Shown: piece by piece, positions 8,551 to 34,396 of the stretch
Layout of the letters: each line of letters opens with the position of its first letter
Numbering within the stretch: position 1 is the stretch's first letter
Virus record (IMG/VR): IMGVR_UViG_2802429245_000006
Strand: one strand, 5' to 3'
Source of the DNA: a virus
Lineage: Duplodnaviria > Heunggongvirae > Uroviricota > Caudoviricetes
DNA: 40,663 nucleotides
Position numbers and translations under genes: made by a program
The notes under the pieces: model-generated
Databases searched by the model: none
Seen by the model: only the letters and a program-made list of their open reading frames with translations
What the model was told of the DNA's origin: nothing

Positions 8551-8767
8551 CAGCTTTTCCTTACAGAGGGTGAATAAAAAAGCCGGTACCCACAAAAGTG
8601 GATACCGGCAGGTACAAAACAGCATGGTCAGATAAAGTGGTTTTTCCCGGACATAAATGCTTCCCCTCTCTCATCCGCCAGAGAAGTATCAGTCCGTTGT
8701 GTGCAATTCCGTTCTGCATGATGAAGAGATTCAGCTGCCTTTTCGCAGACCATTAACCACTATAAAC

Positions 8768-10527: not shown

Positions 10528-11112
10528 TATGTCGTATCCGTTGAAGGATTTACGCATATCGGTAATGCCGGCACCCAGCCAGATGCGGGTACCTGACGGG
10601 AGTGAGATCATTGTCCCCTCCCGCTCAGTTCACGGAGCAACACTGTGAGCAGATCTGGTGAAGGATTTTCCAGCGTCATGTTACCGTGACGGAACTCCAC
10701 CTTGCAGGAGCTGGCACTGACAGTAGTCTGGGTGGATAAAGACGGAGTAAGAGCAGCCACCGGTTCTTGCGGCTCATCCGGCGTTATCTCCACAGGTAAT
10801 AATTCAACGCCAGTGTCAGAAGAGGTTGTTACCGGAAGACGCCGCGATATACGCCCTTCGTTTTGCCAAAGTCTGAGCCATTTGAAAATAACATTATCAT
10901 TGACGCCATTTTCTCGAGCAATCTGGGCCACACAAGCACCGGGTTGTGATGCCAGTTCAACCATACGAAGTTTGAATTCATTCGAATACTTTTTACGAGG
11001 TTCTTTTCGCCAGTCCTGTAATTCCATACTTAGATGTCCGTCTGTGTCAGATGGGCGTCTAAGTTACCAATTCTTGTCTAATGGCTACATACGGCGGTCG
11101 GTTTACGCTTAC
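10528..11112 (-). mobile_element. IS66-family remnant (terminal repeat, tnpA, 5' stub of tnpB)
   Basis: Minus-strand terminus GTAAGCGTAAACC ends at 11112. tnpA is followed by a tnpB start (MISLPSGTRIW...) overlapping the tnpA stop in ATGA at 10608-10611. tnpB homology ends near 10528. Confidence 0.65.
10608..11027 (-). CDS. tnpA: IS66-family accessory protein TnpA
   Basis: 139-aa ORF with ...YSNEFKLRMVELASQPGACVAQIARENGVNDNVIFKWLRLWQNEG..., the TnpA pattern recalled from IS66-family elements. Confidence 0.65.
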   Translation of the reverse strand: MELQDWRKEPRKKYSNEFKLRMVELASQPGACVAQIARENGVNDNVIFKWLRLWQNEGRISRRLPVTTSSDTGVELLPVEITPDEPQEPVAALTPSLSTQTTVSASSCKVEFRHGNMTLENPSPDLLTVLLRELSGRGQ

Positions 11113-11865
11113 CTTGTTCTGGAAAAGCTGGAGATGAAATGGTCTCCAGAGCAAATATCAGGATGGTTAAGGCGAACAAAACCACGTCAAAAAACGCTGC
11201 GAATATCACCTGAGACAATTTATAAAACGCTGTACTTTCGTAGCCGTGAAGCGCTACACCACCTGAATATACAGCATCTGCGACGGTCGCATAGCCTTCG
11301 CCATGGCAGGCGTCATACCCGCAAAGGCGAAAGAGGTACGATTAACATAGTGAACGGAACACCAATTCACGAACGTTCCCGAAATATCGATAACAGACGC
11401 TCTCTGGGGCATTGGGAGGGCGATTTAGTCTCAGGTACAAAAAACTCTCATATAGCCACACTTGTAGACCGAAAATCACGTTATACGATCATCCTTAGAC
11501 TCAGGGGCAAAGATTCTGTCTCAGTAAATCAGGCTCTTACCGACAAATTCCTGAGTTTACCGTCAGAACTCAGAAAATCACTGACATGGGACAGAGGAAT
11601 GGAACTGGCCAGACATCTAGAATTTACTGTCAGCACCGGCGTTAAAGTTTACTTCTGCGATCCTCAGAGTCCTTGGCAGCGGGGAACAAATGAGAACACA
11701 AATGGGCTAATTCGGCAGTACTTTCCTAAAAAGACATGTCTTGCCCAATATACTCAACATGAACTAGATCTGGTTGCTGCTCAGCTAAACAACAGACCGA
11801 GAAAGACACTGAAGTTCAAAACACCGAAAGAGATAATTGAAAGGGGTGTTGCATTGACAGATTGA
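11113..11865 (+). pseudogene. insI: IS30 transposase InsI, N-terminally truncated
   Basis: Translation ...LVLEKLEMKWSPEQISGWLRRTKPRQKTLRISPETIYKTLYF...[15 protein letters not shown] is the C-terminal two thirds of the IS30 transposase. The 387-aa ORF-track frame is a chimeric read-through. Confidence 0.85.
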
Positions 11866-12207: not shown

Positions 12208-12541
12208 CTCGAACCCCAAGACCGGCAATGGAATCGCTTTGTAGAGCTAGAGTTAGTGCCGCATCCTCGTATTGAGCACAGCGAAGCGATTGAGCTAGAC
12301 TATGGCATGACGGGGGGCGCTCTAAAGGTTGAGATTAGAGCGGCCTCGGCAGGCTACTTACTCAGACAATGGAATGTGGATTGTTCTACCAACGCCACAC
12401 TCCAAGATGGTGGAGCTCAATTGTACTTAAAGAACAGAGCAACACTTTATGGAGTTAAAAACATCATGCTAGCTCCAGGGATTGAAAAAGAACTTGGTAA
12501 CTAATGCACAAAAACGAACTTGGCGCAGGGAATAAATTTTG

Positions 12542-15500
12542 ATGAAAATAATCGATAACCTTAACAACCTATTAGGTGACGAGCTTCAACAGACGCTGAC
12601 ACCGAATACAAAGTTAAAGATTGCTGCGTCTTGCTTTTCTATTTATGCGTATGAGGCTCTCAAAAAGGAGTTAGCGAAGATAGACTCACTTGAGTTCATC
12701 TTCACATCACCTACTTTTGTCGCAGATGAAGTTACCGATAAATTCAAAAAAGAAAAACGAGAGTTCTTTATTCCCAAAGCAGGGCGTGAACGCAGCCTTT
12801 ACGGAACTGACTTTGAAATACAGTTAAAGAACAAGCTCACTCAAAAGGCGATCGCCAAAGAGTGTGCAAACTGGATCAGAAAGAAAGCGACATTCAAATC
12901 AAACAAAACTGATTCTCCAATGCAGTCGTTTGTTGTGACGGAAGCACCTAGACAGCAAACAGAGACAATGAGTGCAGTTTTTGCTCCGGTTAGCGGGTTT
13001 ACGGCGGTTGATCTAGGGTATCAGCGAGGAAATGCTATTTCGAATTTTGTGCAAAAAATCGATGAGCCAAATTTCACAGCCCAGTACTTACAGTTATTCG
13101 ACCAAATTTGGAAAGACCCTGCGAAGCTTCAAGATGTTACTAAAACAATTTGCGAGCATATAGAGTCTGTCTACCAGGAAAACTCGCCTGAGAAAGTCTA
13201 TTTCATTATTTTGTATAACATTTTTAATGAGTTCCTTGATGATATTACAGAGGATGTATTACCAAATGATCGAACCGGCTATCAGGACACCTTGATTTGG
13301 AACAAGTTATTCAACTACCAAAAAGATGCCGCGACTGGGATTATCAATAAGTTAGAGACCTATAACGGCTGCATTCTGGCTGATAGTGTTGGTCTTGGTA
13401 AAACATTTACAGCGTTAGCTGTCATCAAGTATTACGAGCTCAGGAACAAGTCCGTACTTCTACTGTGTCCGAAAAAATTGGCAGATAACTGGCTCAACTT
13501 TAATCGAAACTTAAAGACAAATATCTTTGCTAAAGACCGTTTTAGTTACGATGTTTTGTGTCACACAGATTTGAGCCGAATCTCTGGCGAATCCTTCGGT
13601 ACTCCGTTGAATAGAATAAACTGGGGTAACTATGACTTGGTCGTCATTGATGAGTCGCATAACTTTAGAAATAACGATGCAGTGAAAGATCGAGAAACCC
13701 GATATCAGAAACTGATGAATAAAGTTATTCGGGCTGGCGTGAAAACCAAAGTCCTGATGCTATCAGCGACACCAGTGAATAATAGATTTACTGACCTGAG
13801 AAACCAGCTTGCGTTAGCTTATGAAGGCGAGTCGAGCAATCTCACAAAGCATCTTAAAACCACAAAAAGCGTAGAACAGATCTTCAACCAAGCACAAGCC
13901 GCATTTAACGCTTGGTCCAAACTCGACCCAGAGACGCGAACAGCTAAAGCCATACTCGATGCCTTAGATTTCGACTTTTTTGAACTGCTTGATAGCGTCA
14001 CTATCGCTCGCTCACGAAAGCACATCACAACATTCTACGACACAACAGATATTGGCCATTTCCCTGAACGTAACAAGCCAATCTCGTTTCATTGTCCGCT
14101 TACTACTCGTTCGGATGTAGTTAGCCTGAATGAGATCTTTGAACAGCTTAAGCTACTCAAACTATCTGTTTATGCGCCAGTGAGTTATATCCTCCCGAGT
14201 AGATTGAAGAAATATGAGGAGATGTATGACACGGAAGTTGAAGGCGGAAAAGGTAAGTTAAAGCAAAGCGACCGTGAAAAAAGTTTGGTTGCATTGATGA
14301 CAACGAACCTCCTAAAGCGTCTTGAGAGCTCCGTATACTCGTTCAGAAGCACCTTGCAATCTCTCCATGATAACCATGTTCGTGTTCTAGGTATTATCGA
14401 CGAATTCTATAAGCGAGACGGGCAAACCGAAGTGAGCAGTCTCGTTGAAGCGCTAGAGTCTATTGAAGCAGATGAAGACGATATGCCTTCTTATCACGAT
14501 ATGGAAATCGGTAACAAAATCAAAATTAAGCTAATGGATATGGATCTTCCATCCTGGCAGCAGGATTTAGATGGCGATTTGGAGCTGATCAAAGGGTTAC
14601 TAGATTCTGTTAGCAAAATTAAGCCAGAAGAAGATGCTAAGTTGCAGCATCTGAAATCACATATTGCTGCAAAAATAAATAATCCGATAAATCCTGGAAA
14701 CCGGAAAATCATCGTGTTCACGGCGTTTGCTGACACCGCTCAGTATCTGTACGAGCAGTTGTCACCTGTGATGTTAAGCGAGCATAGAATCCATACTGCG
14801 ATGATCACTGGTGGTGCCAGTTTACCTAAGACCACCTTAAAAACCGGACGAAAAGGTTACGACACACAAGAAGTGCTCACCTTGTTTTCTCCAGTTTCCA
14901 AATCGAAAGCCAGTGTATTACCTGACGAACCCGCTGAAATCGATTTGTTGATTGCTACAGACTGTATCTCTGAAGGGCAGAACTTACAGGATTGCGATTA
15001 CTTAATTAACTTTGATATTCATTGGAATCCAGTTCGGATTGTTCAGCGCTTTGGGCGTGTTGACCGTATTGGCTCGGCGAATAAATGTATTCAGTTAGTT
15101 AACTACTGGCCTGATATATCGCTGGATGAGTACATCAACTTAAAAGAACGTGTTGAAAGTCGAATGACGATTGTTGACGTAACAGCGACCGGTGATGACA
15201 ACGTTCTAAGTTGTCAAGCGAATGATGTGTCGTACCGTAAAGAGCAGTTAAAGAAACTACAAGAAGAAGTCATCGAGCTTGAAGATTTAAAAACGGGGGT
15301 TTCTATCACCGATCTAGGTCTAAACGAATTTCGAATGGACCTGCTAAATCTAATGAAACTCTACGGCGAACCAAGAAATGCACCAAGCGGCATGCATGCG
15401 GTGGTTGAGGCTAAGCCAGAATTAGGGTTATTGCCTGGCGTGGTGTTTGCGCTGAAAAACGTTAATAACAGTATCGATAGAGATCTGCAAAACAGGCTCC

Positions 15501-15874
15501 ACCCTTATTACCTTGTCTATGTATCGAATGAAGGGGACATCGTCGCTAATCATTTTGAGGTAAAGAGACTATTAGATTTAATCCGAAGTAGCTGTAAAGG
15601 TCAAACAGCACCGCTCAGTGAGATTTGTGCTTTATTTAATCGCTTAACGCAAGACGGTCGAGATATGCAGTGTTACTCTCACCTTCTAACAGATGCCATA
15701 AAAAGCATGGTTGAAGTTAAGGAAGAAAAAGATATTGATAGTTTGTTCAATGGTGGCGCTACCTCAGCTTTAGTGAATACATTTGCCGGGCTTGATGACT
15801 TTGAATTGCTGGCATTTATTGTGATCCAGCAAAAGCACCTGATGGAAAATAGTGCTCAGGATGAGGTTAGCTAG
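12542..15874 (+). CDS. SNF2-family helicase/ATPase with an unassigned ~250-aa N-terminal domain
   Basis: Motif I ADSVGLGKT, motif II VVIDESHNFRN, motif III LMLSATPVNN, C-terminal helicase motifs ...TDCISEGQNLQ... and QRFGRVDRIGS; 1110 aa from the ATG at 12542. Low-GC coding sequence. Confidence 0.85.
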   Translation: MKIIDNLNNLLGDELQQTLTPNTKLKIAASCFSIYAYEALKKELAKIDSLEFIFTSPTFVADEVTDKFKKEKREFFIPKAGRERSLYGTDFEIQLKNKLTQKAIAKECANWIRKKATFKSNKTDSPMQSFVVTEAPRQQTETMSAVFAPVSGFTAVDLGYQRGNAISNFVQKIDEPNFTAQYLQLFDQIWKDPAKLQDVTKTICEHIESVYQENSPEKVYFIILYNIFNEFLDDITEDVLPNDRTGYQDTLIWNKLFNYQKDAATGIINKLETYNGCILADSVGLGKTFTALAVIKYYELRNKSVLLLCPKKLADNWLNFNRNLKTNIFAKDRFSYDVLCHTDLSRISGESFGTPLNRINWGNYDLVVIDESHNFRNNDAVKDRETRYQKLMNKVIRAGVKTKVLMLSATPVNNRFTDLRNQLALAYEGESSNLTKHLKTTKSVEQIFNQAQAAFNAWSKLDPETRTAKAILDALDFDFFELLDSVTIARSRKHITTFYDTTDIGHFPERNKPISFHCPLTTRSDVVSLNEIFEQLKLLKLSVYAPVSYILPSRLKKYEEMYDTEVEGGKGKLKQSDREKSLVALMTTNLLKRLESSVYSFRSTLQSLHDNHVRVLGIIDEFYKRDGQTEVSSLVEALESIEADEDDMPSYHDMEIGNKIKIKLMDMDLPSWQQDLDGDLELIKGLLDSVSKIKPEEDAKLQHLKSHIAAKINNPINPGNRKIIVFTAFADTAQYLYEQLSPVMLSEHRIHTAMITGGASLPKTTLKTGRKGYDTQEVLTLFSPVSKSKASVLPDEPAEIDLLIATDCISEGQNLQDCDYLINFDIHWNPVRIVQRFGRVDRIGSANKCIQLVNYWPDISLDEYINLKERVESRMTIVDVTATGDDNVLSCQANDVSYRKEQLKKLQEEVIELEDLKTGVSITDLGLNEFRMDLLNLMKLYGEPRNAPSGMHAVVEAKPELGLLPGVVFALKNVNNSIDRDLQNRLHPYYLVYVSNEGDIVANHFEVKRLLDLIRSSCKGQTAPLSEICALFNRLTQDGRDMQCYSHLLTDAIKSMVEVKEEKDIDSLFNGGATSALVNTFAGLDDFELLAFIVIQQKHLMENSAQDEVS

Positions 15875-15877: not shown

Positions 15878-16564
15878 ATGAACTCACCTTGGATATTTCC
15901 TGACAACGCAAAGTTCGGTCGAGTCGTGCCTAAGAACAAAATATATGAGCACAGCGCGGCAAGCACTGGGTTGAAGTCACTTTTTGTAGAGCAAGTAGAG
16001 CAAATCCTTTGGGCTTACAAGCTATCGCCTAGCACGCTGAATATTCCTCAAACCAGTGAGGTCAGTGAAATACAGGTTTTCAGTGTGAAGCTTAAAGGTG
16101 ACTCGATAGACGACAGCGTACTAAAAGCCATTGATTTGGCGATACCTTTTCCCATTCTATTTGAGGTATGGGAAGCTCGCGGTGAGCAAGGCCACTACGT
16201 TGCTTGCTATAAGCGTAAGGCAGAAAATGATCAGTCAAAATGGTTTTGTAGCCGCTATTTACGTTCAGAAACCTTCTATTCAAGTGATTCATTAGCAGTG
16301 ACTTCAGAAGTTTTGGGTTTGCCTACCGCTATCGATATGGCGGAGCTGTATCAAAAGCTTCTTACTCGCTTGTTACCCATACCCCAACGAGCCGCTGAGA
16401 GTATAGAAGAGGCTATTCAACGCCTGGAGGCAATTCAGGCATTGGAAAAGCAAATCTCGCAATATAAGAAGAAGGTTCATGCCGAGAAACAGTTTAACCG
16501 CAAGGTTGAGCTCAATAAGCAGTTAAAGAATTTAAGGTGCGAGCTTCAAGAGTTACTCGCATAA
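15878..16564 (+). CDS. Small accessory protein (DUF4391-like, with C-terminal coiled coil)
   Basis: 228-aa ORF starting 3 nt after the helicase stop. Family assignment is from recalled gene neighbourhoods, not a verified match. Confidence 0.55.
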   Translation: MNSPWIFPDNAKFGRVVPKNKIYEHSAASTGLKSLFVEQVEQILWAYKLSPSTLNIPQTSEVSEIQVFSVKLKGDSIDDSVLKAIDLAIPFPILFEVWEARGEQGHYVACYKRKAENDQSKWFCSRYLRSETFYSSDSLAVTSEVLGLPTAIDMAELYQKLLTRLLPIPQRAAESIEEAIQRLEAIQALEKQISQYKKKVHAEKQFNRKVELNKQLKNLRCELQELLA

Positions 16565-16637
16565 AGAATAAACAATTTCAATCAGTTAAATAGTGCCACA
16601 TGCTTTTTATGCAAGGCATCACGCAAAAGGTGAACAC

Positions 16638-18629
16638 ATGGACAAATTAAAGATGCACAGCCCCGACATGACGCAGCAAAACATAGAGAAAATTCAGGCG
16701 TTGTTTCCGAACTGTGTGACGGAATCAAGAGGAGCTAACGGAGAGCTAAAGTTAGTCATTGATTTTGACCAACTTAAACAAGAGCTATCAAATTCAATCG
16801 TTGAAGGCCCGCAAGAGCGCTATCAGCTGAACTGGCCCGGTAAGCGAGAAGCACTACTAACAGCGAATGCACCTATTGCCAAAACCTTAAGACCTTGTCG
16901 AGAAGAAAGTGTCAATTTTGACACCACTAAAAACCTCTTTATTGAAGGCGATAACCTTGATGCATTGAAACTGCTACAAGAGGCATATATTGGAAAAGTC
17001 AAATTAATATATATTGATCCACCTTATAACACCGGTAATGACTTTATATATGAAGACGATTTTTCTGAAAATGCAGAGAGCTTCTTAATAAAGTCCAACC
17101 AGAAAGATAGTGATGGTAATAAATTAGTAGCGAATACAGAAGCTAATGGCAGATTTCACTCGGATTGGCTAAGCATGATGTACTCACGTTTGAAATTGGC
17201 TCGTAATCTACTAAGTGATGAAGGAGCTGTGATTATCTCAATTGATGAGAATGAACACAGCAACATAGTGAAATTAGGTGGTCTTATATTTGGCGATGAA
17301 AACTTTTGTGGCGAAATAGTCTGGAAAAATAGTAGTAAAAATGACCAGAAATATGTCTCAATACAACACGAATACCTTGTTATATTTGTTAAATCAAAGC
17401 AAAACAATAAGGGGGATTGGGTTGAGAAAAAAGAAGGCCTAGACCAAATTTATCAAGCGTTTGATGGTTTTAAACGCAAACATGGCAATGACTGGGATGC
17501 AATACATGCAGATGCGCTTGAATGGTATAGGAGTTTCCCTGCATCCAATCCAATTTCATCAAGTAAACATTATAGCTGGATGGACGAGCGCGGTGTATAT
17601 TTCCCAGATAATATTTCAGGCCCAAACGATGGTCAGTATGTTTATGACGTCATCCATCCTGTGACTAACAAACCATGCAAAATGCCTTCTACAGGATGGC
17701 GCTATCCAGAATCAACGTTAATTGAAAGAATAGCTGATAATCGAGTGCACTTTGGAAAGGATCATAAAACTGTTCCAAACAATAAAACGTATCTAAAAGA
17801 TACTGAATATCAGAGCCTTACGAGCATGCGCTTCGTTGATGGTCGCAGCGCTTCTAAAAGGCTGCAAACCCTTTTCGGTGATAAAGTTTTTACAAACCCT
17901 AAAGATGAAATTTTATTAAAAGATTTATTTAAAGCAATTGGTGTATCAGAAAAAGATATAGTCCTTGATTTCTTTGCAGGTTCTGCATCGACGATACATG
18001 CTGTTTTTGAACTCAATAAAGAAACTGGCAGTAATTGTTCGTGTATCCTAGTGCAGCTTCCAGAAGATCTGAAAGAAATGTTAAAAACGGCTAAAGGTTC
18101 TGCTAAGAAAGTCACGCAGAACGCTATCAATTATTTGAAAAATAAAGGCCTACCACAAACAATTAGTGAAATTGCAAAAGAACGTATTCGACTTTCGGGG
18201 CAAAAGTATACCGAAGATTTCGATATTGGATTCCGAGTTCTCAAAGTAGATACCTCCAACATGGCGGATGTGTACTACTCTCCAGATCAAGTTACTCAGG
18301 GTTCGTTAGACTTATTGGTAGATAATATTAAAGCAGACCGCACTGATGAAGATTTACTTTTCCAGGTTCTACTTGATTGGGGCGTCGATTTAACCTTGCC
18401 AATTAGAAAAGAAACGATTCAAGGTAAATCGGTATTCTTTGTCGATGATGATGCACTGGTGGCCTGTTTTGATCTGCGCATAAATGAAGCTTTGATTAAA
18501 GAGTTAGCCACAAAAGAGCCACTTCGCGTAGTGTTCCGTGATGACGGCTTTGAGTCTGATGCAGTAAAAATCAATGCTGAGCAGATTTTCAAGCAAGTGT
18601 CGCCACATACTGAAGTTAAAGCGATATAA
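16638..18629 (+). CDS. mod: Type III Mod-like N6-adenine DNA methyltransferase (beta class)
   Basis: Catalytic motif [12 protein letters not shown] precedes AdoMet motif [12 protein letters not shown], the order typical of Type III Mod. ATG at 16638 with AAGGTG upstream; the ORF-track frame begins 15 codons earlier. Confidence 0.85.
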
Positions 18630-18638
18630 GGAGGGATC

Positions 18639-18728
18639 ATGACAAATTTTACCGGATTAAAATTTGCACACAGCCTTGTCGCAGACAAGGTGTGCCCGAA
18701 GTGTTGCGTACATGGAGGTGCGCAATGA
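18639..18728 (+). CDS. Possible 29-aa leader peptide (uORF) coupled to res
   Basis: ATG at 18639 is 4 nt after AGGAGG; translation [29 protein letters not shown]; its TGA overlaps the res ATG (ATGA at 18725-18728). Confidence 0.3.
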
Positions 18729-21700
18729 AACTTAAGTTCAAAGTCCAACCTTATCAAACTGTTGCCGTAGAGTCGGTTGTTGACTGCTTTGCGGGGCAAC
18801 CTAACACATCCGGCGTTACCTACCGAATCGACCCTGGCGTTGCCAAGGATAAGTTTGGCAATGCTGGTTGGGATATGAGCGACCAAGACGGTTTTAAAAA
18901 TGCAGAACTCGCGATCACTGAATCGCAGTTATTGCAAAATATTCATGGTGTTCAAAGTAGACAGAACCTCCCTGTTTCAGAAGCGTTAGTCAGCAATGCT
19001 AGCGCTAAGATTAATCTCGATGTTGAAATGGAAACCGGTACTGGTAAGACATATTGCTACATCAAAACCATCTTTGAGATGAATAAGCGCTATGGCTGGA
19101 GCAAATTTATTATCGTTGTGCCTAGCATCGCCATTCGTGAAGGTGTTTACAAGTCGCTGCAAATCACAGGTGAGCATTTTGCTCAGAATTACGACGGTAA
19201 AAAGGCCCGGTTCTTTATCTATAACTCGAAACAATTGCACCAGTTAGAGAGTTTTTCTTCTGACAGTGGCATCAATGTGATGGTCATTAATATTCAAGCC
19301 TTTAATGCTTCAGGAAAAGACAATAGACGTATTTATGAAGAGTTGGATGACTTTCAGTCTAGGCGTCCTATTGATGTTATTAGTGCAAACCGTCCAATCC
19401 TGATTTTGGATGAGCCACAAAAGATGGAAGGCAAGAAGACATTAGATGCCTTAGCCAAATTCAAACCACTGATGGTACTTCGATATTCGGCCACGCATAA
19501 GACAACACATAATAAAGTGCATCGCCTGGATGCGCTTGACGCTTATAACAATAAGCTGGTTAAGAAAATTGCCGTTCGTGGTATTTCAGTAAAAGGCTTG
19601 GCGGGAACGACAGCCTATCTATATTTGGAATCCATCGAGATCTCGAAAAAAATGCCAGTGGCTCGCATTGAGATCGAAGTTAAACAACAAAATGGTATTA
19701 AACGCATACCCAAGAAGGTTACTAAGGGCGATAATCTTTTTGATCTTAGCAATGGTCTGGACCAGTACCGTGACTTTGTGGTTACTGATGTCAACGCGAT
19801 TAACGACACGGTTGAATTCAAAAATGGCCATGTTTTAACCACGGGCGATGCGACGGGAGACGTGACCGAAGAGACCATTCGCCGAATACAGATCCGCGAG
19901 ACAATTAAAGCGCACCTTGAAAAAGAAAAAACACTTTTTAACCAGGGTATAAAGGTTCTCTCTCTCTTTTTTATTGACGAAGTCGCAAAGTATAGGGACT
20001 ACTCTCAAGCCGATGAAAAAGGTGATTATGCTCGCGTTTTTGAAGAAGAGTACTCCTTGCTTGTACAGGAATATCTTGATGAGTTGACTCTTTTACCGAG
20101 TGAGCAGACTGATGCCTATAAAGCCTATCTATCGGCCATTGAAGGCTCCAGAACGCATAATGGTTACTTCTCAATTGATAAGAAATCAAATCGTCTTCAG
20201 AACCCCGGCTTTAAAGTCCGTGGTGAAGATGCCGGGCTATCAGACGATGTAGATGCTTATGATTTGATTCTAAAAGATAAGGAAAAGTTACTTTCGTTTG
20301 AAGAGCCTACTCGGTTTATCTTTTCACATTCGGCCTTGCGCGAGGGGTGGGATAATCCAAACGTATTTGTCATGTGTATGTTAAAACACAGCGACAACAC
20401 TATCTCTCGTCGTCAAGAAGTTGGGCGTGGTTTACGTCTGGCCGTCAATAAACATGGTGACAGACAAGACCATCCGGCAACTGTGCATGAAATTAATGTT
20501 TTGTCGGTGATTGCAAGTGAAAGCTATAAAGACTTTGTCACGAATCTGCAAAAAGAGATCAGCGAGTCTCTCTCAGCGAGACCTAGAAAAGCAGATGAAG
20601 CTTATTTTACGGGTAAGACAATTACAACAGCTGATGGACCTGTAGAAGTAACACCTGTCATGGCTAAGCAAATTTATAAGTATTTGCTTAAAAATGATTA
20701 TACCAATGACGTTGACGATTCAATTGCGCCATCATTCCACCAGGCTAAGGCTAGTGGACAGTTAGCGCCAATGCCTGCTGAGTTAGAGCCTTACCGCGAG
20801 CAAATATTGACCCTGATTGACGGTGTTTATAGTGAAGCGCAATTGCCAGGTGTTGGTGATGATCGTAAACCTAAAAACAATCCGTTGAATGCTAATTTTG
20901 ATAAGAAAGAGTTTCAGGAGCTTTGGCACAAAATCAATCGCAAAGCGGTTTATAAGGTTGATTTTGATTCGTCTGAGTTGATTAAAAATTGTATTCGGGT
21001 ACTCAATAAAGAGCTTAAGGTAACGCCTCTTCAGTACACGATTCAAGATGGTGTTCAATTGGATGGCATTACCGACGAACAACTCAAAGCTGGACAAAGT
21101 TTCAAGGTGAAAAACACTGAGACTGAAACTCATCAATCGAGCATTCATTCTGCTGTTCGTTATGACTTGGTTGGTAAGTTGGCTGAAAATTGTGTGCTGA
21201 CTCGCAAAACAGTCGCCGAAATACTGATGGGTATAGAACCTGTAGTATTTGCACAATTTAAGCAGAACCCTGAGCATTTTCTCGCTGAGGCTTCACGCCT
21301 TGTGAAAGAGCAAAAGGCATCTGTGATCATCGAGAAGCTATCATATGATCCAACGAACGAATCTTATGATGTTGATATATTCACGGCAGAGCAAAAAATC
21401 ACTGATATGACAAAAGCCGTTAGTGGCGTTAATAAGCATATTTATGATTATGTTGTCGTTGATTCACAAGGCATTGAACGGGACTTTGTTACCGAGCTTG
21501 ATACAAGCAAAGAAGTCGTGGTTTATGCAAAACTGCCTCGTGGTTTTCTGATACCGACGCCTGTTGGCGACTACAACCCTGATTGGGCGATTTCTTTCAA
21601 AGAAGGAAGTGTTAAACACATTTACTTTATTGCAGAGACTAAAGGAACGATGTCTTCGCTTGAATTGCGTGGCATAGAAGATCGCAAGATTGAATGTGCT

Positions 21701-21802
21701 AGGAAATTCTTTGAAAAAATTAATGCAGAGATAACGAGTGAAAACGTCAAATATGATGTTGTAACGAGTTACTCGAAATTAATGGAAGTCATAAGCGGTT
21801 AG
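18725..21802 (+). CDS. res: Type III Res-like restriction subunit (helicase plus C-terminal PD-(D/E)xK nuclease)
   Basis: Walker [11 protein letters not shown], motif [13 protein letters not shown]-like RYSATHK, motif [12 protein letters not shown]-terminal ...NPDW...FIAETKG nuclease-like motif. ATG at 18725 with GGAGG upstream. Confidence 0.85.
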
Positions 21803-22077: not shown

Positions 22078-22362
22078 ATGGGCACACCACGATTTACACC
22101 TGAATTTAAGGAAGAAGCCGTCCGACAGATAACGGAACGCGGTTATTCCGTTGCCGAAGTATCTGACCGTCTGGGCGTTTCTGCCCACAGCCTCTACAAG
22201 TGGCTACGGGCTATCAAACCGGATAACAGCGAGCAGCATGCCCGGGATTTACTGGAAGCCAAAAGCGAGATCCTGAAACTACGGGCGCAGCTAAAACGTA
22301 CCGAAGAAGAACGGGATATCCTGAAAAAGGCCGCGCGGTACTTTGCAAGGGAGCCCGACTGA
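22078..22362 (+). CDS. IS3-family transposase OrfA (HTH)
   Basis: 94-aa ORF MGTPRFTPEFKEEAVRQITERGYSVAEVSDRLGVSAHSLYKWLR... ending in a leucine-zipper-like region. Confidence 0.8.
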   Translation: MGTPRFTPEFKEEAVRQITERGYSVAEVSDRLGVSAHSLYKWLRAIKPDNSEQHARDLLEAKSEILKLRAQLKRTEEERDILKKAARYFAREPD

Positions 22363-22400
22363 AGTACCGCTTTATCAATGAGCACCGCACTGTATGGGGT

Positions 22401-23213
22401 GTGATGACAATGTGTCGGGTACTGGATGTCGCCCGGGCCGGGTTCTACGCGTGGCTGCATAACCCGGTCTCGGCACGTGATAAAGATAATCAGCGTCTGC
22501 TGACGCTTATCCGTGACTCCTATTCACTGAGCGGAGGCGTATACGGTTACCGGCGGGTTCATGGCGACCTGAACGAAATCGGGGAAACCTGCGGTAAAAA
22601 CCGGGTGGGCCGTATTATGCAACTGAACCGGATTAAAGCCGTGCGCGGCTATAAAGCGCCGCGTCGTATCGCTGGCAGACCTTCAGTGGTTGCCCCTAAT
22701 CGCGTGCAGCGGCAGTTTACTGTTGTCCGGGCCAATCAGGTCTGGGTCACCGACATTACTTATTTCCGCACCTGGCAGGGCTGGCTGTATCTGGCGGTGG
22801 TTATCGATCTCTTCGCCCGTAACGTGGTGGGCTGGTCGATGAAGCCCACTCTCTCACGCGAACTGGCGTTGGATGCACTGATGATGGCGGTCTGGCGACG
22901 TAAACCCGACGGCGAGGTCATCGTGCACTCAGACCAGGGAAGCCAGTACGGCAGTGACGACTGGCAGCGCTTCTGCCGGGCTAATAACCTGGTCCCGAGC
23001 ATGAGCCGGCGTGGCAACTGCTGGGATAATGCGGTGGCCGAATCGTTCTTCAGTTCACTGAAAAAAGAGCGCATCAGGAAGAGAATATACAAAACCCGGG
23101 ATCTAGCCCGGGCGGATATCTTCGATTACATTGAAGTGTTCTACAACCGGGCCCGGCGCCACAGTCACCTCGGCGGCGTCAGTCCGGAGGCCTTTGAACA
23201 GGCCTCGTCGTGA
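22401..23213 (+). CDS. IS3-family transposase OrfB (DDE integrase core), expressed by -1 frameshift from orfA
   Basis: The frame is open from about 22320; DDE-region motifs ...WVTDITYF...HSDQGSQY...CWDNAVAESFF... The annotated start is a GTG. Confidence 0.8.
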   Translation: MMTMCRVLDVARAGFYAWLHNPVSARDKDNQRLLTLIRDSYSLSGGVYGYRRVHGDLNEIGETCGKNRVGRIMQLNRIKAVRGYKAPRRIAGRPSVVAPNRVQRQFTVVRANQVWVTDITYFRTWQGWLYLAVVIDLFARNVVGWSMKPTLSRELALDALMMAVWRRKPDGEVIVHSDQGSQYGSDDWQRFCRANNLVPSMSRRGNCWDNAVAESFFSSLKKERIRKRIYKTRDLARADIFDYIEVFYNRARRHSHLGGVSPEAFEQASS

Positions 23214-23971: not shown

Positions 23972-24535
23972 TCAGTTATGTCGTGGTCGGCCCCGGTTAC
24001 TTTTTTCGGGAAGCCTGCTACGGCCCAGAATAATACCGTGTTCTTTCTGATCCTGTTTAGCCAGGTAGCTGAGGGCGTAACGTAAGTCGTCTACCGCAGA
24101 CTTATCACTATAGTGAATCACGTGATCGATACACACAGGGTATTTGTCTTTAGCCCGGCAAAGGTGAAAATAACCATCCCCTTCCGTGATCCGCCTCCAG
24201 ATATCTCCCAGTTGCCTGGATATCTGATAAGAGTTCTTGTGACGTTGTCCATCCAGGTAGCCGATAAAATGAATATGAAGCCCTTTGTTTGGTGTATATT
24301 CCATAACCCAGTAATATCCCACCAACATCGTCTGGGTTTCGCTAAGTAAGCGGTATATTTCCATACACATACTGTGCTTACAGGAATGCCCGAAACTGGG
24401 CGTGTCTTTCCTGTAGGCAAAATCAATTCTGAAAGGTAACAGTTTAGAAAAACGTTGAAACAACCCCTCCATGTGTTCATTCACATCTTTCAGAATCGCG
24501 AAATTCATTTCGTAATTGGGATTGGCATTATACAT
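23972..24535 (-). CDS. yfjJ: YfjJ/YagK-family protein (inovirus Gp2-like)
   Basis: 187-aa ORF with ATG at 24535 and AAGGAC upstream; sequence and position next to a yfjI-like gene match the CP4-57 layout. Confidence 0.7.
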   Translation of the reverse strand: MYNANPNYEMNFAILKDVNEHMEGLFQRFSKLLPFRIDFAYRKDTPSFGHSCKHSMCMEIYRLLSETQTMLVGYYWVMEYTPNKGLHIHFIGYLDGQRHKNSYQISRQLGDIWRRITEGDGYFHLCRAKDKYPVCIDHVIHYSDKSAVDDLRYALSYLAKQDQKEHGIILGRSRLPEKSNRGRPRHN

Positions 24536-25411
24536 TTTATAGTCCTTACTTTATAAAACTCACAGGAAGAGGAAATTATGTAAATGCTGAGGGTACAGAA
24601 ACGTCGTACCACGGCATTAATAAACGAGGTAACCAGCAGTACAGACAACCTGATAAAACTGTTTGGTATTACCTCATTGCTGTAATGAGGTAATATATTC
24701 AGAATACAGTGAAACTCTCTTAAACTGAGGACCAGTACAAATTACAATGGTAAAAACATACCCCATAGAATTAACTTTAAGGAAACACCATTCAATCACT
24801 TAAAGGAAGTAATCTGACATTCACAAAAGTCAGTATCGGGTAGCTACAGGCAACACCGCTATTGATACTCCCGCACCATTAAGTAAAAACATCAACTCAG
24901 CTTAAGGCCTCTACAGATATTTAATCTCCACCATAAACAATAACGGAGCTATAACGTACGAACCAGACACACATTCAATGATTAACTTTCTCAATATTAC
25001 ACTATGAGTAAGTGACATAATTTAACATATAACTAAACAACATACACTACTCACTGATGTATATACATCACATACCTACAGACTAAGCAGAATGGTCAGC
25101 ATAAAGAGGAGCGACAATACGATAAAAAGAGATAAAACAATATAACAGATCACATAACTCCCACTAATAATACTAATTAACCTAAATTATTTATTGAACA
25201 CGAGAACAATGAGGGAACCTCCTCATCTAGGACTAAAGCCAGCAATATCCTGAGCAACACTCTATCCAATAGTAAATAATGGTTATACCAGTTATATTTG
25301 CTGACTGACCTGTACCAGAGTTCTGTAATACAACAACGCTGACATGGTAAAGGCATTAGTCTCCTCCGCAAGTAGCAGAGGAGACTATATGTTACTCAAC
25401 GATTAAGTCGT

Positions 25412-26845
25412 TCAGAGGTCAAAGTTAGGTGCGACATACCACGTTTTTCCCTCAATAACCGGTACAACTCTGTTTTGTTCATACAGTAAATCCAGTAACC
25501 AATTGATTTTATCCTTTTTCCGGAAACGGTTCGGACCACGCTGTAAAATGTCATTTTTTTTCATACAGGGGATCCCCTTCTCAATGCAATAGCTTTTTAT
25601 CCAGTTAAAAAGTTCAAGCTCCTCTGGAATGAGTCGCACAGGTACGGTCAGGGCAGAGTTTTCAAACGTTAACGGACTGGATAACCGAACATACTCATTA
25701 CCATACCATATTGCTAATTCTCTCGCCATTTCAGCAGTGTAGGGGGAAATGTCACCTTCCTCACCGCTAAAATGGTGAATAAGTCCTGCCAGTCTTGCCA
25801 TATACTCTGCATTTTTAGCAGCATATTCTCTGAAGTCTCTTAAAGGCCCCAGAACCGACATCTTCGATTCCACATCGTTGTAATAGTCCGTCCAGATTCT
25901 GGCTGCCTGAGGAGAAAAGTGAAGGCAACGCCGCTCTCCCCTCATCGCCAGGCTTTCATCAATGAGTTCATTTATCCTCTGTTCAAACAAATCCTGATAC
26001 TGTGATGAATAATTATCTCCGGTTATTATCCTTGTCCCCTGCGTTGATGTTGGTTGACACATCAAAAACCTTGCATGATGTCCCGACGTTTTCACAAGTT
26101 CTTTTTTTCGTGTACAAAAACCTTTGTGGTAAACATCAGGCTGAACCATCACCGATATCGTCAGTCTTGGTTCCTTCAAAAAAATTCCGGGAGATGATTT
26201 CCTGTCGATGAAAAGAGAACCACCATCCCACAAAGAGTTAAGTATTCCCAGTTTACTCATTGCCCGGCTGTCAAAAATTATCCCACCTTCACTGGATACA
26301 AGAGCAAAAGAGCGATTGCTATCAGAATAATATTTTAACATTCCCTCTATCGTTGTATCATTAAAAATTGTTCGATGTATCTGTGGTGGAACAGGACACT
26401 TATTCAGATGTGTTTTAAGCTCTGATTCTGTTGTCTTATAATCTTTACCGGCACGAATCTCTTTATGAAGTTTTGACTCCAGTGCTTTTTGTTTTTGCTC
26501 CCATATTTCCTTTTCTGTACTGTAATTCTCAACCAGTTTCGCGTATTCTTCCGCCAGGGCTTCATCCCTGAGATAAAATGCTTTCATAAACACTTTATCC
26601 ACGGTCGTTTTCCTTTCACCAGAATCAGCCAGAATCATAGAGTAAATATTAGAGGACCCACGTAAATTTCCTGGCCTGCACACATCAACCTGATTCTGAC
26701 AGGCAATTGACATCGCTGTTAATGCTGCAGTTATCGCCATAGCTATAGGTGTCTGTGTATTCTTTTGAGTTTCAATTATTGCATTTCTCGCCAGCGGTGG
26801 CATTGCATATATCGGACAAGGATTTTCTGGTGCAAGTAAGCACAT
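25412..26845 (-). CDS. yfjI: YfjI-like protein (DUF3987 family)
   Basis: Long ORF; ATG at 26845 with GAGG upstream is preferred over the ORF-track start at 26863. Position between alpA and yfjJ matches CP4-57. Confidence 0.7.
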   Translation of the reverse strand: MCLLAPENPCPIYAMPPLARNAIIETQKNTQTPIAMAITAALTAMSIACQNQVDVCRPGNLRGSSNIYSMILADSGERKTTVDKVFMKAFYLRDEALAEEYAKLVENYSTEKEIWEQKQKALESKLHKEIRAGKDYKTTESELKTHLNKCPVPPQIHRTIFNDTTIEGMLKYYSDSNRSFALVSSEGGIIFDSRAMSKLGILNSLWDGGSLFIDRKSSPGIFLKEPRLTISVMVQPDVYHKGFCTRKKELVKTSGHHARFLMCQPTSTQGTRIITGDNYSSQYQDLFEQRINELIDESLAMRGERRCLHFSPQAARIWTDYYNDVESKMSVLGPLRDFREYAAKNAEYMARLAGLIHHFSGEEGDISPYTAEMARELAIWYGNEYVRLSSPLTFENSALTVPVRLIPEELELFNWIKSYCIEKGIPCMKKNDILQRGPNRFRKKDKINWLLDLLYEQNRVVPVIEGKTWYVAPNFDL

Positions 26846-27420
26846 AAATGCCTCTCTTTTCATTAATGGGTTAGTAAAGTAGCAGCAACTCCCGCTATAA
26901 TAGCGAAAATAGCTGCTGTTCAGACCTAATGTTCTGAAAAATACAGAATATCTGTAGATCTGATGTTTAATAACCGATAAGGTTAATTCAGTTCAGACTG
27001 TGTTATTTACCACGAAATATCATTCATGTTTCTCATTCTTAACACCTCCTAAAATTATTTCACTAACACCTTCCCCCCGGTCTTTTTCCTTTCTCAGGAA
27101 TCAGCCAGAACCATAGTGTAAATATTAACGGGCCCACGTAAATTTCCGGAGCTGCACACGTCAATCTGATTCTGACAGGCAATTGACATCGCTGTTAATA
27201 ATGATGTTGTAGTCATAGCCAGAGATGCTTTTTCATTTTGTTGAGTTTCAATTATTGCATTTCCAGTCATTGATGGTTGCGCATATACTGGATACGGAGT
27301 ATCCGGTTTGATGTAAGACATAAATATTCCCTTTTTTCGTAATGACTTTCGGTTATAGCAGCTATTTCCGCTACAATAGCAACAATAGCTGCTATACAGA
27401 CTGGATATACTGAAAATACA
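26603..27420. repeat. Tandem imperfect direct duplication (~350 bp, roughly 75-80% identical) of the yfjI promoter-proximal and 5' coding region
   Basis: 26603-26940 aligns with 27076-27420 by eye (for example gacaggcaattgacatcgctgttaat and gagtttcaattattgcattt occur in both). Confidence 0.75.
27094..27321 (-). pseudogene. Truncated duplicate of the yfjI 5' end
   Basis: 75-aa ORF MSYIKPDTPYPVYAQPSMTGNAIIETQQNEKASLAMTTTSLLTAMSIACQNQIDVC... parallels the N-terminus of the full gene and ends inside the duplicated block. Confidence 0.6.
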
Positions 27421-27426
27421 AACAGT

Positions 27427-27654
27427 TCATCTGGTCTGTATCCAGCAGAGAAGGTCACTTAACAACCATCCGCAAGATTTCTTTCCGATAGACTTACGTG
27501 GTGGAAATTTTCCCTCCCGTTCAAGTTTCCACGCTTGCGTACGAGAAACTGACGTGATCTCATATCGTTCCTTTTCACGTACCAGTCTGTCGCATTCAAT
27601 CCCATAAGCTTTCAAAATGACCAGACGCTGTTCATCTGTTAATGGAAGCCACAT
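27427..27654 (-). CDS. alpA: AlpA-family phage transcriptional regulator (HTH)
   Basis: ATG at 27652-27654 with AGGAGGG upstream; ...ERYEITSVSRTQAWKLEREGKFPPRKSIGKKSCGWLLSDLLCWIQ resembles AlpA-type HTH proteins. Confidence 0.75.
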   Translation of the reverse strand: MWLPLTDEQRLVILKAYGIECDRLVREKERYEITSVSRTQAWKLEREGKFPPRKSIGKKSCGWLLSDLLCWIQTR

Positions 27655-28346
27655 ACTACCCTCCTGATATATCAATACTTTTTATTTCCGGCATGAGCAT
27701 GAAATGACTAAGTTTCCCGGATAAACAATGAGTGAAAGTCACTGTCATTCATCCAGCCAACACCTTGCAAATAAAATGTAATACTATGATTTTTATAGGT
27801 CAAAATACTGAATTACAATGTTAAAATGGCTTTTAATAGAAAAAATAAAGACATATAGAGCCAAATAAAAATAAACTACGACAAATAAAAACAAAAGATT
27901 AATATTAAAAATCCATTATGACGATTTTTATTGACTAAAATCAGGTTGGGATATATAAATAAATCCATGTAAAATTCAAACAAGGCATGGAGGAGTCGCA
28001 GGAAGGTGAAATATTTCCATCTAATTTGTGATAATCATCACAAAAATAAGCTACAACAAGCGGAGGAAAAGACAATCTGTTGCTGAACAGACAGAAGCAG
28101 GCTACGAATGATCGGAAAATGAAGCAAATACGCTTATACAGAAGACGCAGGGGTAACTGACGGAGACAATCACAATCAGGAGAAAATGATCGTAAATAAT
28201 GTATAAAATCTCAGGATATAAACAAATGTACACAAGCTATCCACGTAATCTGCGGCTGGCTCAGGATTAACGTTTCATTTCAGTGGACGACATCGATTCT
28301 GTCTGACAGTGGGCCAATATGTGGCAAGCAGAAAACTTCTGACATC

Positions 28347-29978
28347 ATGGTAACTCGGACAATGCAACAAAAGTATGATCGTGTTTTATCTGGCGAATCC
28401 CATCCATTCCCTGGCATATACGAGGCGGTTTCCGAACAACTCCTTTTGCTCATCTTTAAGGCTCGTCAGCTATATCAGAATCCAGAATATCGCCCCTGGT
28501 TTGAAGAACAGCACAGAGTTCTCTCTGCATTACGTGCTAATACAGAGCTCTTGAGAATATTTAGAGAACAAAGAAACGCGGAAGAACCAGAGCTTATTAT
28601 TAAAGAATCTACATTACCCCTACTCACTAATTCTAATCTTACAGATGCGCTTAATATTATGTGCCATTTATACAATGGTTTTGATGAAGGAAATATCAGT
28701 CTGAAAACCTGGGGGGCGATGCAAGAGGTACAGACAACATCAACCTTTATCAGCCCGGGACCGAGAACCTGGAAAACACCTGAACTGGCAAAGTTTGTAG
28801 GAGATGATTTATTTAATATTCTGACTGAATGTAAAGCCTGGAGTTCACCAATTCCAGCAGAAACCCGACAGGGCTATTGCCATCAGGATCTGTCTGTTGC
28901 ACACTCCTGCACCTCAGAGTTACTGGCACACCTGAATCAATACCATGAAATTGATGAATCAGCAATACTTGCCAGAGTTATTGGTATGACGGTTAACGGA
29001 TTCTACAAGAAAAATAATACAGACCTCCCAGAATGGCTATCCCCCTTTAAAGAGGAACATAAAATATTCAGAGATTGTCTGGAGCAAAAGACCGAGGATG
29101 TAATCAGACTGAAAGAACAACTGTTGAAAACAGGACGTTCAGAATTCGTGAATAATTTGTGTCGGGTCGCCAACTGGTATGAAATTAAGTCAATATACGA
29201 TGAATATGTCCGTCTTTATGCCAATGAAATCATTGGTTGGTTCAACAAAACCATGGAATATTTTAAACCAACAGATTTTATCCGATATACATGGAAATTC
29301 GCAACAGTTACTCCAGGTAAAGAGACAGAAACCAAGCATACAACTGCATGGGAAAAGGATTATTGCCAGATAACTATACAACGTGATGAACTTCTGAGAT
29401 TGATTCACACGAATACCCTTCAGGATGCAGTAATTTATCTTTGCCATTGTCTGCAGAAGAAATACAAGAAATCATCCCAAAATGAGATAGAGTTTCCAGG
29501 AATAAAACCTCCGGCATCAGAGAGTGAAATTAATATAACAGATAGTTTTGAATTTTATTCTCTCCTGGAGCTCAGTAAAGATAATGAGAGACGGCTGGAA
29601 ACATTTCAAAAATGGTATGAAAAAAATAAAGTTTTGTTAGAAAGTCATAAACAAAAACGAACAGAGAAGATTGACGTTGCCGTACGACTTGTAGGGCTGA
29701 AAGCCTATGATCTGCATGAAGGGATTCCGGATAGTCCAAAACGAAAAGTTAAAGATGGCATAAATGAAGACATCAAAGCCGATACCAGTTTACGCCTGCC
29801 AAAGACAAATATAAGTGATACGTCGCTAAACCGTTATCGCCGCACTGTTAAGGAGATTATCAATAACGAAATCGACGCATTCCTGTTGGAACAGAAGAAA
29901 AAAAATAAAAGATTTCCCTACAGTGAAGATAGAGATGTGATTCGACCTTTATGGGGAAAATGCCTGACCGGGCAGTAG
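28347..29978 (+). CDS. Hypothetical protein, 543 aa, low GC, function unknown
   Basis: Long clean ORF in AT-rich DNA, divergent from alpA; no motifs recognised. A second possible ATG lies at 28362. Confidence 0.6.
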   Translation: MVTRTMQQKYDRVLSGESHPFPGIYEAVSEQLLLLIFKARQLYQNPEYRPWFEEQHRVLSALRANTELLRIFREQRNAEEPELIIKESTLPLLTNSNLTDALNIMCHLYNGFDEGNISLKTWGAMQEVQTTSTFISPGPRTWKTPELAKFVGDDLFNILTECKAWSSPIPAETRQGYCHQDLSVAHSCTSELLAHLNQYHEIDESAILARVIGMTVNGFYKKNNTDLPEWLSPFKEEHKIFRDCLEQKTEDVIRLKEQLLKTGRSEFVNNLCRVANWYEIKSIYDEYVRLYANEIIGWFNKTMEYFKPTDFIRYTWKFATVTPGKETETKHTTAWEKDYCQITIQRDELLRLIHTNTLQDAVIYLCHCLQKKYKKSSQNEIEFPGIKPPASESEINITDSFEFYSLLELSKDNERRLETFQKWYEKNKVLLESHKQKRTEKIDVAVRLVGLKAYDLHEGIPDSPKRKVKDGINEDIKADTSLRLPKTNISDTSLNRYRRTVKEIINNEIDAFLLEQKKKNKRFPYSEDRDVIRPLWGKCLTGQ

Positions 29979-30064
29979 ATCACTGAGGGGATAACAGCCC
30001 GGTTATCCCCTGTTTGTTCTGCTTCAGGTTGCCAGAGCTCTAGGAACACGAGGCAATCGGCAAA

Positions 30065-30661
30065 TTATGCGGCTTTTCCATTAACAGATTCGGCCACAAG
30101 AACGACAGTGTGTTTGTTTCGCTCAGGATGTTCACTCCAGATTTCTGATTCCGGGATGCTTTCCCCGTCATAACTGATCCGTTCGCCATCAAACGGGTAA
30201 TACCGTGCGGAATCAGTATCTAAAATAAACACCTTCAGATTCGTTGAACGACGCGCAATATGCTGCCAGAGAGCTTTTCCTCCTTCATATTGCTCGTTAT
30301 CACTTAATAGTACAACGCCCGCTTTTGTGACTATCGTTTCATAAACAAACGTTGCAAGACCAACATCGCGTACAGCTCCATCGACAACAATCCCTTCAAT
30401 CTGAGCAACATCCTGTTCTTCCCAGAATTTCTGGACAAACACGCCTTCAAGTCGGGGACGACGCTGAAGCTCCAGAGTGGCAACAACCTTATGGCGAACA
30501 TCACCATCAATAACAGAAGGTGCAGCTTCGATTACCGCAGCAAACGGAGTCTTTGGATCCCAGATGATCTGGTAAAGCACGCCCTGAATAGTTACTCCAT
30601 CCAGTATCGAAAAACGACGGGCTACAGTAGCAGGGGAGTAAGACATTGGAATTACAGCCAT
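30065..30661 (-). CDS. Hypothetical protein, 198 aa, function unknown
   Basis: ATG at 30659-30661 with GAGGGG upstream; the ORF-track start at 30691 is a GTG without an RBS. Confidence 0.55.
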   Translation of the reverse strand: MAVIPMSYSPATVARRFSILDGVTIQGVLYQIIWDPKTPFAAVIEAAPSVIDGDVRHKVVATLELQRRPRLEGVFVQKFWEEQDVAQIEGIVVDGAVRDVGLATFVYETIVTKAGVVLLSDNEQYEGGKALWQHIARRSTNLKVFILDTDSARYYPFDGERISYDGESIPESEIWSEHPERNKHTVVLVAESVNGKAA

Positions 30662-30790
30662 TTTAGAATCCCCTCTGAGTAATACAGGCACGAAAATTTA
30701 CCTCAATAATTATAGTAAACAATACCAGAGCCAGGCGCATCAACAATACTCATCAATTGTACTCAAGTCGTACAACGATCAGGAACGCCC

Positions 30791-32107: not shown

Positions 32108-32303
32108 AGAACCTCTTTTCTAAACCAGTAACAATCAAAATAACTCGTAAATTTGGGTCAGGTAATGGGTCAGGTAACGATCGTACAATGGAGAAAAAAC
32201 GGAACCAAGCGGAAACAGAAGCAATTACATAATTACTTGATTATAAACAATTAATAAAACAATTACGAACAAACCAAAACAATATAGAATGGACTTGCCT
32301 CAT

Positions 32304-32350: not shown

Positions 32351-32358
32351 TATCTATC

Positions 32359-34034: not shown

Positions 34035-34045
34035 TGTATCCCCCT

Positions 34046-34387: not shown

Positions 34388-34396
34388 TGCTCCCCC

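Follow-up and report, generated by a model that had tools for sequence, protein, structure and literature searches.

A 29-codon reading frame that ends on the start of res in a Type III restriction-modification operon as a probable by-product of an 86-bp hairpin-rich insertion

Translational coupling through an overlap of stop and start codons (AUGA) occurs in bacterial operons, with trpB-trpA and trpE-trpD as examples. The leader peptides and upstream open reading frames (uORFs) of ermC, cat, tnaC and secM depend on conserved arrest peptides and on alternative structures. Intercistronic stem-loops of the enterobacterial REP, BIME and ERIC types are short, transcribed and members of dispersed multi-copy families, and the stabilisation of upstream cistrons by REP-type stem-loops, as in malE-malF, is an established mechanism. 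Some restriction-modification systems are also of concern here. In Cfr9I, a hairpin restricts the start of translation of the restriction endonuclease and is relieved by translation of the upstream methylase gene (Lubys et al. 1994, as cited in PMC12707154). For EcoP1I and EcoP15I, a post-transcriptional delay of Res is described, with a mechanism that is uncharacterised (Redaschi & Bickle 1996, via PMC12707154).

We analysed a window of 40,663 nucleotides, the whole stretch of DNA in IMG/VR record IMGVR_UViG_2802429245_000006, in which a preliminary description had pointed to a Cys-rich 29-codon uORF with a strong ribosome-binding site (RBS), ending on the start codon of res. It had proposed that this uORF could couple Res translation to translation near mod, as a plausible safety device against premature expression of the nuclease. 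Our comparison with related loci indicates that the uORF probably arose by accident, when an 86-bp hairpin-rich insertion entered a Type III operon at the start codon of res. The features on which the argument rests are collected in Table 1.

Table 1. Features of the mod-res junction and of the gene cluster around it, in window coordinates
Feature	Position	Strand	Description
HKD/SNF2 helicase	12539-15874		four-gene cluster
DUF4391 protein	15878-16564		four-gene cluster
mod, Type III N6-adenine methyltransferase	16593..18629	+	Pfam N6_N4_Mtase 2.9e-28; PADLOC MTase_III 1.6e-219
AGGAGG	18629..18634	+	overlaps mod stop; native res Shine-Dalgarno sequence in insertion-less relatives, now serving the uORF
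uORF	18639..18728	+	29 codons; ATG is the former res ATG; TGA overlaps present res ATG; three alleles compared
Insertion, 86 bp	18639..18724	+	derived and junction-specific; boundaries ambiguous by 4 nt; from alignment with insertion-less relatives
Hairpin 1	18640..18668	+	perfect 9-bp A/U-rich stem (18643-18651 / 18658-18666) with 2 outer pairs; invariant in 3 alleles
Hairpin 2	18669..18694	+	7-bp perfect upper stem (18674-18680 / 18684-18690), loop GCA; about -15 kcal/mol
Hairpin 3	18703..18726	+	9-bp stem with two G.U pairs (18703-18711 / 18718-26); -12 to -13.6 kcal/mol
GGAGG, second Shine-Dalgarno sequence	18714..18718	+	insertion-borne; 6 nt 5' of res ATG; invariant in all alleles
res, Type III restriction endonuclease	18725..21802	+	1025 aa, intact; Pfam ResIII and RE_endonuc; PADLOC REase_III E=0; 80 homologues
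First ~129 nt of res	18725..18853	+	part of recombination tract; 13 synonymous differences, then 0 over the remaining 2,950 nt

The operon is of Type III, in that a Mod protein of the MTase_III class adjoins a Res protein with helicase and endonuclease domains. The mod coordinates in Table 1 are those of the longest ORF; gene callers applied to identical contigs give a product of 663 aa. The centre of mod (17073-18225) is unalignable between alleles that are otherwise 94-98% identical, with Mod lengths of 625, 640, 655 and 663 aa. This centre is presumably the target-recognition region, and the pattern in the alignments looks like swapping of mod target-recognition domains between alleles.

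The cluster lies within an E. coli-like chromosomal island and is bracketed by transposase genes (10702-11865, 22078-23213), with an ORF of the rve-domain (integrase-core) type upstream and IS3-family orfA/orfB about 280 bp past the res stop; the downstream IS3 copy is common to contigs with and without the insert. The island is mosaic (window 5701-8625, 25412-26863, 30791-32107, 36704-38842) and carries genes for an AIDA/Ag43-type autotransporter, a DUF3987 (YfjI-like) protein, a tyrosine integrase with an arm-binding domain and a DUF927 protein. In the E. coli matches to positions 24000-40663, the annotated genes include those for capsid and terminase, an indication that this part is a satellite or prophage remnant. 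No tRNA gene was found in the window. Res itself is 98-99% identical in Shewanella, Salinivibrio and Celerinatantimonas and 66-76% identical over Alpha-, Beta-, Gamma- and Deltaproteobacteria, Bacteroidota, Planctomycetes, Spirochaetes, Lentisphaerae and Melainabacteria; this combination of high conservation and wide phyletic spread points to extensive horizontal transfer.

The initiation signals and the overlap named in the preliminary description are present in the sequence. AGGAGG is followed by a 4-nt spacer, GATC, and by the ATG at 18639, and the frame of 29 codons ends in a TGA (18726-18728) that overlaps the res ATG (18725-18727) as ATGA. The AGGAGG shares base 18629 with the mod stop codon TAA (18627-18629). 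That description omitted the second, res-proximal Shine-Dalgarno (SD) sequence, GGAGG. The assignment of the res start to 18725 is backed by 80 homologues, nearly all of which start with MKLKFK(V/T/I)Q at the equivalent codon. The uORF has two features of coupled gene pairs, namely a credible initiation site and a stop codon overlapping the downstream start (ATGA in three of three alleles). In shuffled inserts of the same composition, the frame of the old ATG is open across 28 codons in 20% of cases, and an open frame with its TGA on the res ATG is expected by chance at about 7% (20% multiplied by 1/3 for the length class), so the geometry alone needs no selection. On the minus strand, a 155-aa ORF with a TTG start (18419-18886) spans both the mod-res junction and the insert; it is probably spurious, since in alleles that lack the 86 bp its frame would be shifted.

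A megablast search with the junction against complete E. coli genomes returned 10 relatives, nine of which gave a split alignment that lacks about 86 bases. In the alignment of these nine, the mod TAA is followed by GGAGGGAGC and at once by the res ATG, with a gap of 9 nt; among the E. coli relatives, the 86 extra bases with ATGA at each side are found in the window and in one plasmid (ET300). Because ATGA flanks both ends, the exact boundaries of the insertion cannot be placed more closely than Table 1 states. The sequence TAAGGAGGGA(G/T)C followed by ATG stands immediately 5' of res in loci L002-L004 and L006-L009. One of these, from Celerinatantimonas (L007), has the left flank exactly as in the window, TAAGGAGGGATC, and then the res ATG at once.

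The wider sample comprised 80 loci with Res homologues of 66-99% identity from many phyla, 51 of them with mod directly upstream and 50 with a measurable gap. The distance from the mod stop to the res ATG is 8-14 nt in 48 of these 50, against 95 nt in the window; the two exceptions are L042, with 26 nt, and L080, for which 41 nt was computed and about 23 nt results if its true ATG, read from the sequence, is taken. None of the 80 loci contains the insert or a comparable spacer, the gap being at most 26 nt where mod lies directly upstream. The spacers of L042 (2968-3000) and L080 (~2960-3000) are thus moderately lengthened. That of L042, 26 nt long, has a small hairpin of its own (CCTCGG-A-CCGAGG) and may go back to a separate small insertion at the mod-res junction. 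In distant Res homologues without an adjacent mod, three to five tandem 11-nt units stand just 5' of the res ATG (3001 in the numbering of these loci), as in L053 (~2939-2993), L064 (~2928-2960) and L077 (~2929-2983), for example TGCAGAAAGAA five times, TTGCAGAGAGC three times and GCCGAATAAAC five times. The 11-nt period is constant between genomes and the sequence of the unit differs; looser repeats of a similar kind were seen by eye in L025, L031, L039, L065 and L081.

Judged by these alignments, the short mod-res junction is ancestral and the 86 bp are a derived insertion. The opposite polarity, an ancestral insertion deleted in the relatives, was rejected, as the short junction is shared by outgroups from many phyla. 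Without the insertion, which parted res from its native RBS and ATG, there would be no uORF, and the RBS and start of the uORF are, on the same alignments, the stranded start signals of res. They thus need no special explanation: the RBS is indeed strong, with its AGGAGG, but it is the native res initiation site of the insertion-less relatives.

The sequence just inside res bears on the origin of the inserted DNA. Codons 2 and 3 (18728..18733, plus strand) read AAACTT versus AAGTTA, three synonymous differences that are fully linked to the insertion. These two codons are the only adjacent flanking sites with full linkage, to which res nt 114 (window 18838) is added further downstream. AAACTT probably belonged to the inserted or converted DNA, and its linkage to the insert suggests that the incoming DNA brought its own SD-ATG-Lys-Leu segment. 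The source may be an unsampled homologue of res; no donor of the 86 bp was found in the collections searched.

With the insert, the 95-nt junction and k-mers taken from the hairpins as queries, we searched genomes, plasmids, phages, viral contigs and metagenomes. Among 5,426 E. coli genomes the insert was found in ET300 only, among IMG/VR viral contigs in one contig of 107 kb, and in the metagenome collection in three contigs, in each case at the mod-res junction. It was absent from 72,556 plasmids (all PLSDB plasmids that carry the operon lack it), from 50,697 phages and from 185,579 species genomes. A blastn-short search of the window and of 85 other loci for a second copy gave only chance matches of 11-14 nt. 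Altogether the insert was seen as three alleles from at least 12 independent assemblies or contigs: that of the window, L086 and L089; that of L001, L005 and L087; and that of L088, which was retrieved with a 21-mer from hairpin 2 and is therefore subject to ascertainment bias.

Several identities for the inserted DNA were considered and rejected. A dispersed repeat of the REP, BIME, ERIC, MITE or PATE kind was set aside, as every match in every collection was the same junction. The 3' end of the insert, GGTGCGCA, resembles a XerC arm by eye, and no acceptable XerD arm was found at a spacing of 6-8 nt, which argues against an Xer/dif-like site. Group II intron domain V, attC and IS ends were rejected on inspection against consensus sequences. 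As a candidate operator for a DNA-binding regulator, the palindrome CCTTGTC-N3-GACAAGG has no second copy in the window, where only chance matches with three mismatches were found.

The exact Res protein of the window is widespread, being listed in 671 index blocks. We read 25 contigs with identical Res, of which about 12 carry the insert together with a mod of 663 aa and about 13 have the 9-nt junction with a mod of 625 aa. From res nt 129 to the end of the gene, and further into the IS3 element, the insertion-less contigs match the window at every nucleotide; their first 129 nt of res show 13 synonymous differences from it, and the 3' end of their mod is GPEC996-like. From these alignments, a recombination breakpoint lies near res nt 129 and the state of the junction travels with the exchange of mod cassettes by homologous recombination, which accounts for the insertion-bearing alleles being non-monophyletic in their flanks. 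A recent clade of single origin was rejected on the same lack of monophyly. Because identical Res occurs on about 13 of the 25 contigs without the insert, the insert is, on this comparison, not required. Full-length res of 1025 aa is intact in the window, L086, L087 and L088, and ET300 alone among the insertion-bearing copies has it frameshifted. Inactivation of res was observed in two plasmid copies of the system: it is annotated as frameshifted in the ET300 plasmid (L001, NZ_CP100974) and is truncated, with the C-terminus missing, in pCUVM3.1 (L004, NZ_CP116971), where the annotation places an ISApl1 transposase inside the region of the match.

Frame and ATGA overlap persist in each of the three insert alleles, but the peptide is not conserved. 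Six sites vary in the insert, falling on codon positions 1, 2, 3, 1, 2 and 3, and the substitutions comprise five non-synonymous changes (H11N, S12I, C22G, H25Q/L) and one synonymous. For comparison, res of the window and of L001 differ in 74 synonymous and 9 non-synonymous codons, so that the ratio of non-synonymous to synonymous changes is 5:1 in the uORF and 9:74 in res (Fisher p = 2.6e-4). The label "Cys-rich" fits the window allele, which has three Cys in 29 residues arranged as CxxCC, but the motif is CxxGC in the other two alleles, with C19 and C23 retained. The peptide is absent as a called protein from a collection of 15 billion proteins. By these counts the uORF peptide is without purifying selection and its sequence is not conserved. 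It shows neither the purifying selection nor the presence across homologous loci that mark a conserved leader peptide or small protein; among related loci, the frame is kept only within the small insertion-bearing subgroup.

At the RNA level, the insert folds into three predicted hairpins that are kept in all insert alleles. The lower stem of hairpin 2 consists of 4 bp across a bulge, and the L088 allele breaks only the terminal pair of this hairpin (18669) and alters the bulge (18673). In the predicted fold of hairpin 3, which is stable on the sense strand only, the new res SD lies mostly in the loop, with the spacer and the AU of the res AUG in the 3' arm. Against dinucleotide shuffles, the fold of the insert has z = -3.3 to -3.7, and its predicted free energy is lower by 4-7 kcal/mol in the sense orientation than in the antisense. 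The statistics of substitution rest on six variable sites in three alleles. Five of the six sites are in unpaired positions, which make up 23 of 86 (P = 0.006, or 0.012 without the 21-mer used for retrieval). Divergence of the insert is 3.5-5.8%, versus 9-13% at fourfold sites of res (P ~0.01-0.02, or 0.07-0.09 without the L088-retrieval 21-mer). Among 34 predicted pairs, no compensatory change was found in the three alleles available. The res SD (GGAGG) is predicted to be unpaired with a probability of 0.5-0.75, and the mean unpaired fraction over the res RBS region is predicted at 0.43-0.53 with the insertion versus 0.41-0.51 in relatives without it. Rfam 15 gave no match overlapping 18630-18730 even at E<=10; no terminator-like site was found in 18300-19000, with no T-run after any of the three hairpins, and no promoter was found inside the insert. 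The stability of the fold, the low divergence and the distribution of substitutions hint at constraint on the insert at the nucleotide or RNA level. Since conservation falls on the stem-loops and not on the codons, any selected role is more likely to be at the RNA level than in the peptide.

Five other explanations have to be weighed. The uORF might encode a functional small Cys-containing protein, such as a metal-binding or regulatory micropeptide; it has a strong RBS, it is open in all alleles and two of its Cys residues are retained. Its substitutions nevertheless include the radical changes C22G, H25L, S12I and H11N, its variable sites are spread evenly over the codon positions, it occurs in no protein collection and most relatives lack it. 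The 5:1 ratio, the lost CxxCC and the want of a called protein make a functional Cys-rich peptide very unlikely, and we give this explanation hardly any credence. The insert could also be a miniature mobile element (MITE, REP/BIME-like or IS200/IS605-derived) targeting ATGA, which would suit its small size, its several hairpins and the 4-nt direct repeats of ATGA at both ends. The repeat, on the other side, amounts to no more than the res ATG with the initial A of the Lys codon after it; on inspection the ends, CAAATTTTACC... and ...GGAGGTGCGCA, show no inverted repeat, hairpins 1 and 3 at the two ends are unrelated, and the window, genomes, plasmids, phages and metagenomes searched hold no second copy. 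We regard a mobile origin of this kind as quite improbable.

That the uORF is a selected device, relaying mod-proximal translation to res so that the nuclease comes after Mod or in proportion to it and a naive host is protected, would fit the retention of frame and overlap in three alleles, intact res in three of four independent insertion-bearing lineages and the lower divergence of the insert than of res fourfold sites. In the modelled hairpin 3, the spacer and some of the res AUG are base-paired, a structure that ribosomes arriving from upstream would unfold; a translational delay of Res for EcoP1I/EcoP15I and a hairpin-gated endonuclease start for Cfr9I are on record (PMC12707154). We nevertheless consider such a device unlikely. 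The system evidently persists without it in almost all relatives and in about half of the identical-Res contigs, an arrangement of the coupling type already existed in the ancestral 9-nt junction, where the SD overlaps the mod stop, res has its own strong SD that is predicted to be largely unpaired, and with only six substitutions an open frame is expected by chance. A variant in which the 86-nt module is a selected, recombinationally portable "plug-in" that retunes or delays Res relative to Mod and spreads with mod specificity cassettes seems to us improbable as well. A structured RNA as the functional unit, with the uORF incidental and the stem-loops serving as a barrier to 3' exonucleases, as a processing site or as a modulator of res initiation, is a possibility that we would entertain only tentatively. 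The fold beats its shuffles and is more stable in the sense orientation, the stems are invariant while substitutions gather in loops and linkers, the G.U pairs of hairpin 3 form only in sense-strand RNA, and stabilisation of upstream cistrons by REP-type stem-loops (malE-malF) would offer a precedent by analogy. Set against this are the lack of covariation among the three alleles, of any Rfam match and of a U-tract, terminator-like or promoter-like site, together with the confinement of the element to one locus, which leaves it without support at the level of a family, and its dispensability in about half of the identical-Res contigs.

We return to the uORF as a probable accident of the insertion. 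The alignments show that the insertion displaced res by 86 nt in the downstream direction, and that the old AGGAGG and ATG now head a 29-codon frame running through the insert. For translation, the following course of events can be proposed. Ribosomes would keep loading at the old RBS, which is the working res RBS in relatives, would melt hairpins 1-3 while translating the relay ORF and would terminate on the res AUG (AUGA), where re-initiation is possible; other ribosomes could bypass this relay by initiating at the new SD, in the loop of hairpin 3. In this way Res would still be made, possibly at a mildly retuned level, which would account for the finding that three diverged alleles tolerate the insertion with res intact. 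On this model, the uORF is most likely translated as an incidental relay that keeps res translatable. The lower divergence of the insert and the avoidance of stems by substitutions hint at selection, which a purely accidental origin would leave unexplained.

As to the proposed function, coupling of Res translation through the uORF is partly borne out. The relay is plausible because the coupling geometry is kept in every insertion-bearing sequence seen; any gating of it by structure would be hypothetical, as the RBS has a similar predicted accessibility in junctions of both kinds. The idea of a dedicated, conserved safety device is not supported: the arrangement is a by-product of the insertion, nine of 10 E. 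coli relatives and about half of the identical-Res contigs lack it, and the peptide is unconserved. It is an ordinary by-product of a lineage-specific indel.

The locus teaches that a strong RBS, a short ORF and an ATGA overlap, for all their textbook look, can be a scar; here, an insertion stranded the start signals of the gene itself. It also provides a natural experiment, in which E. coli lineages with nucleotide-identical res exist with and without an 86-nt structured spacer, and these paired lineages would allow the influence of intercistronic structure and of relay ORFs on the Res:Mod ratio of a Type III system to be measured. In addition, the locus displays recombination on a fine scale, with a breakpoint about 129 nt into res and swapping of mod cassettes.

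Compared with known systems, the junction shares with trpB-trpA and trpE-trpD an upstream ORF with a strong SD, a UGA overlapping the AUG and an internal SD a few nucleotides before the downstream start, but what stands here in the place of an upstream gene is a 29-codon frame read through a recent insertion. Like the uORFs of ermC, cat, tnaC and secM, it is a short ORF directly 5' of a gene with RNA hairpins around the downstream RBS; unlike them, it has no conserved peptide and shows no evident scheme of alternative pairing. The insert resembles REP, BIME and ERIC elements as a short hairpin-forming sequence between operon cistrons that is present or absent between strains, but it is confined to a single locus and no similarity to these elements was detected in E. 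coli genomes. With EcoP1I and EcoP15I the locus has in common a Type III mod-res operon, theirs being one with post-transcriptional control of Res output; neither of the two is known to contain the insert, and the Res studied here comes from a helicase-DUF4391-mod-res cluster. As in Cfr9I, a methylase gene lies upstream and a stem-loop, here a predicted one, stands at the initiation region of the nuclease, which upstream ribosomes would open. In contrast to that Type II system, the present one is of Type III, has a relay uORF between the methylase and nuclease genes, and carries the SD in the loop, where it is predicted to be mostly accessible. By analogy, the arrangement would work like ordinary coupling by stop/start overlap, and what it most resembles is the hairpin-gated coupling of methylase to nuclease in Cfr9I.
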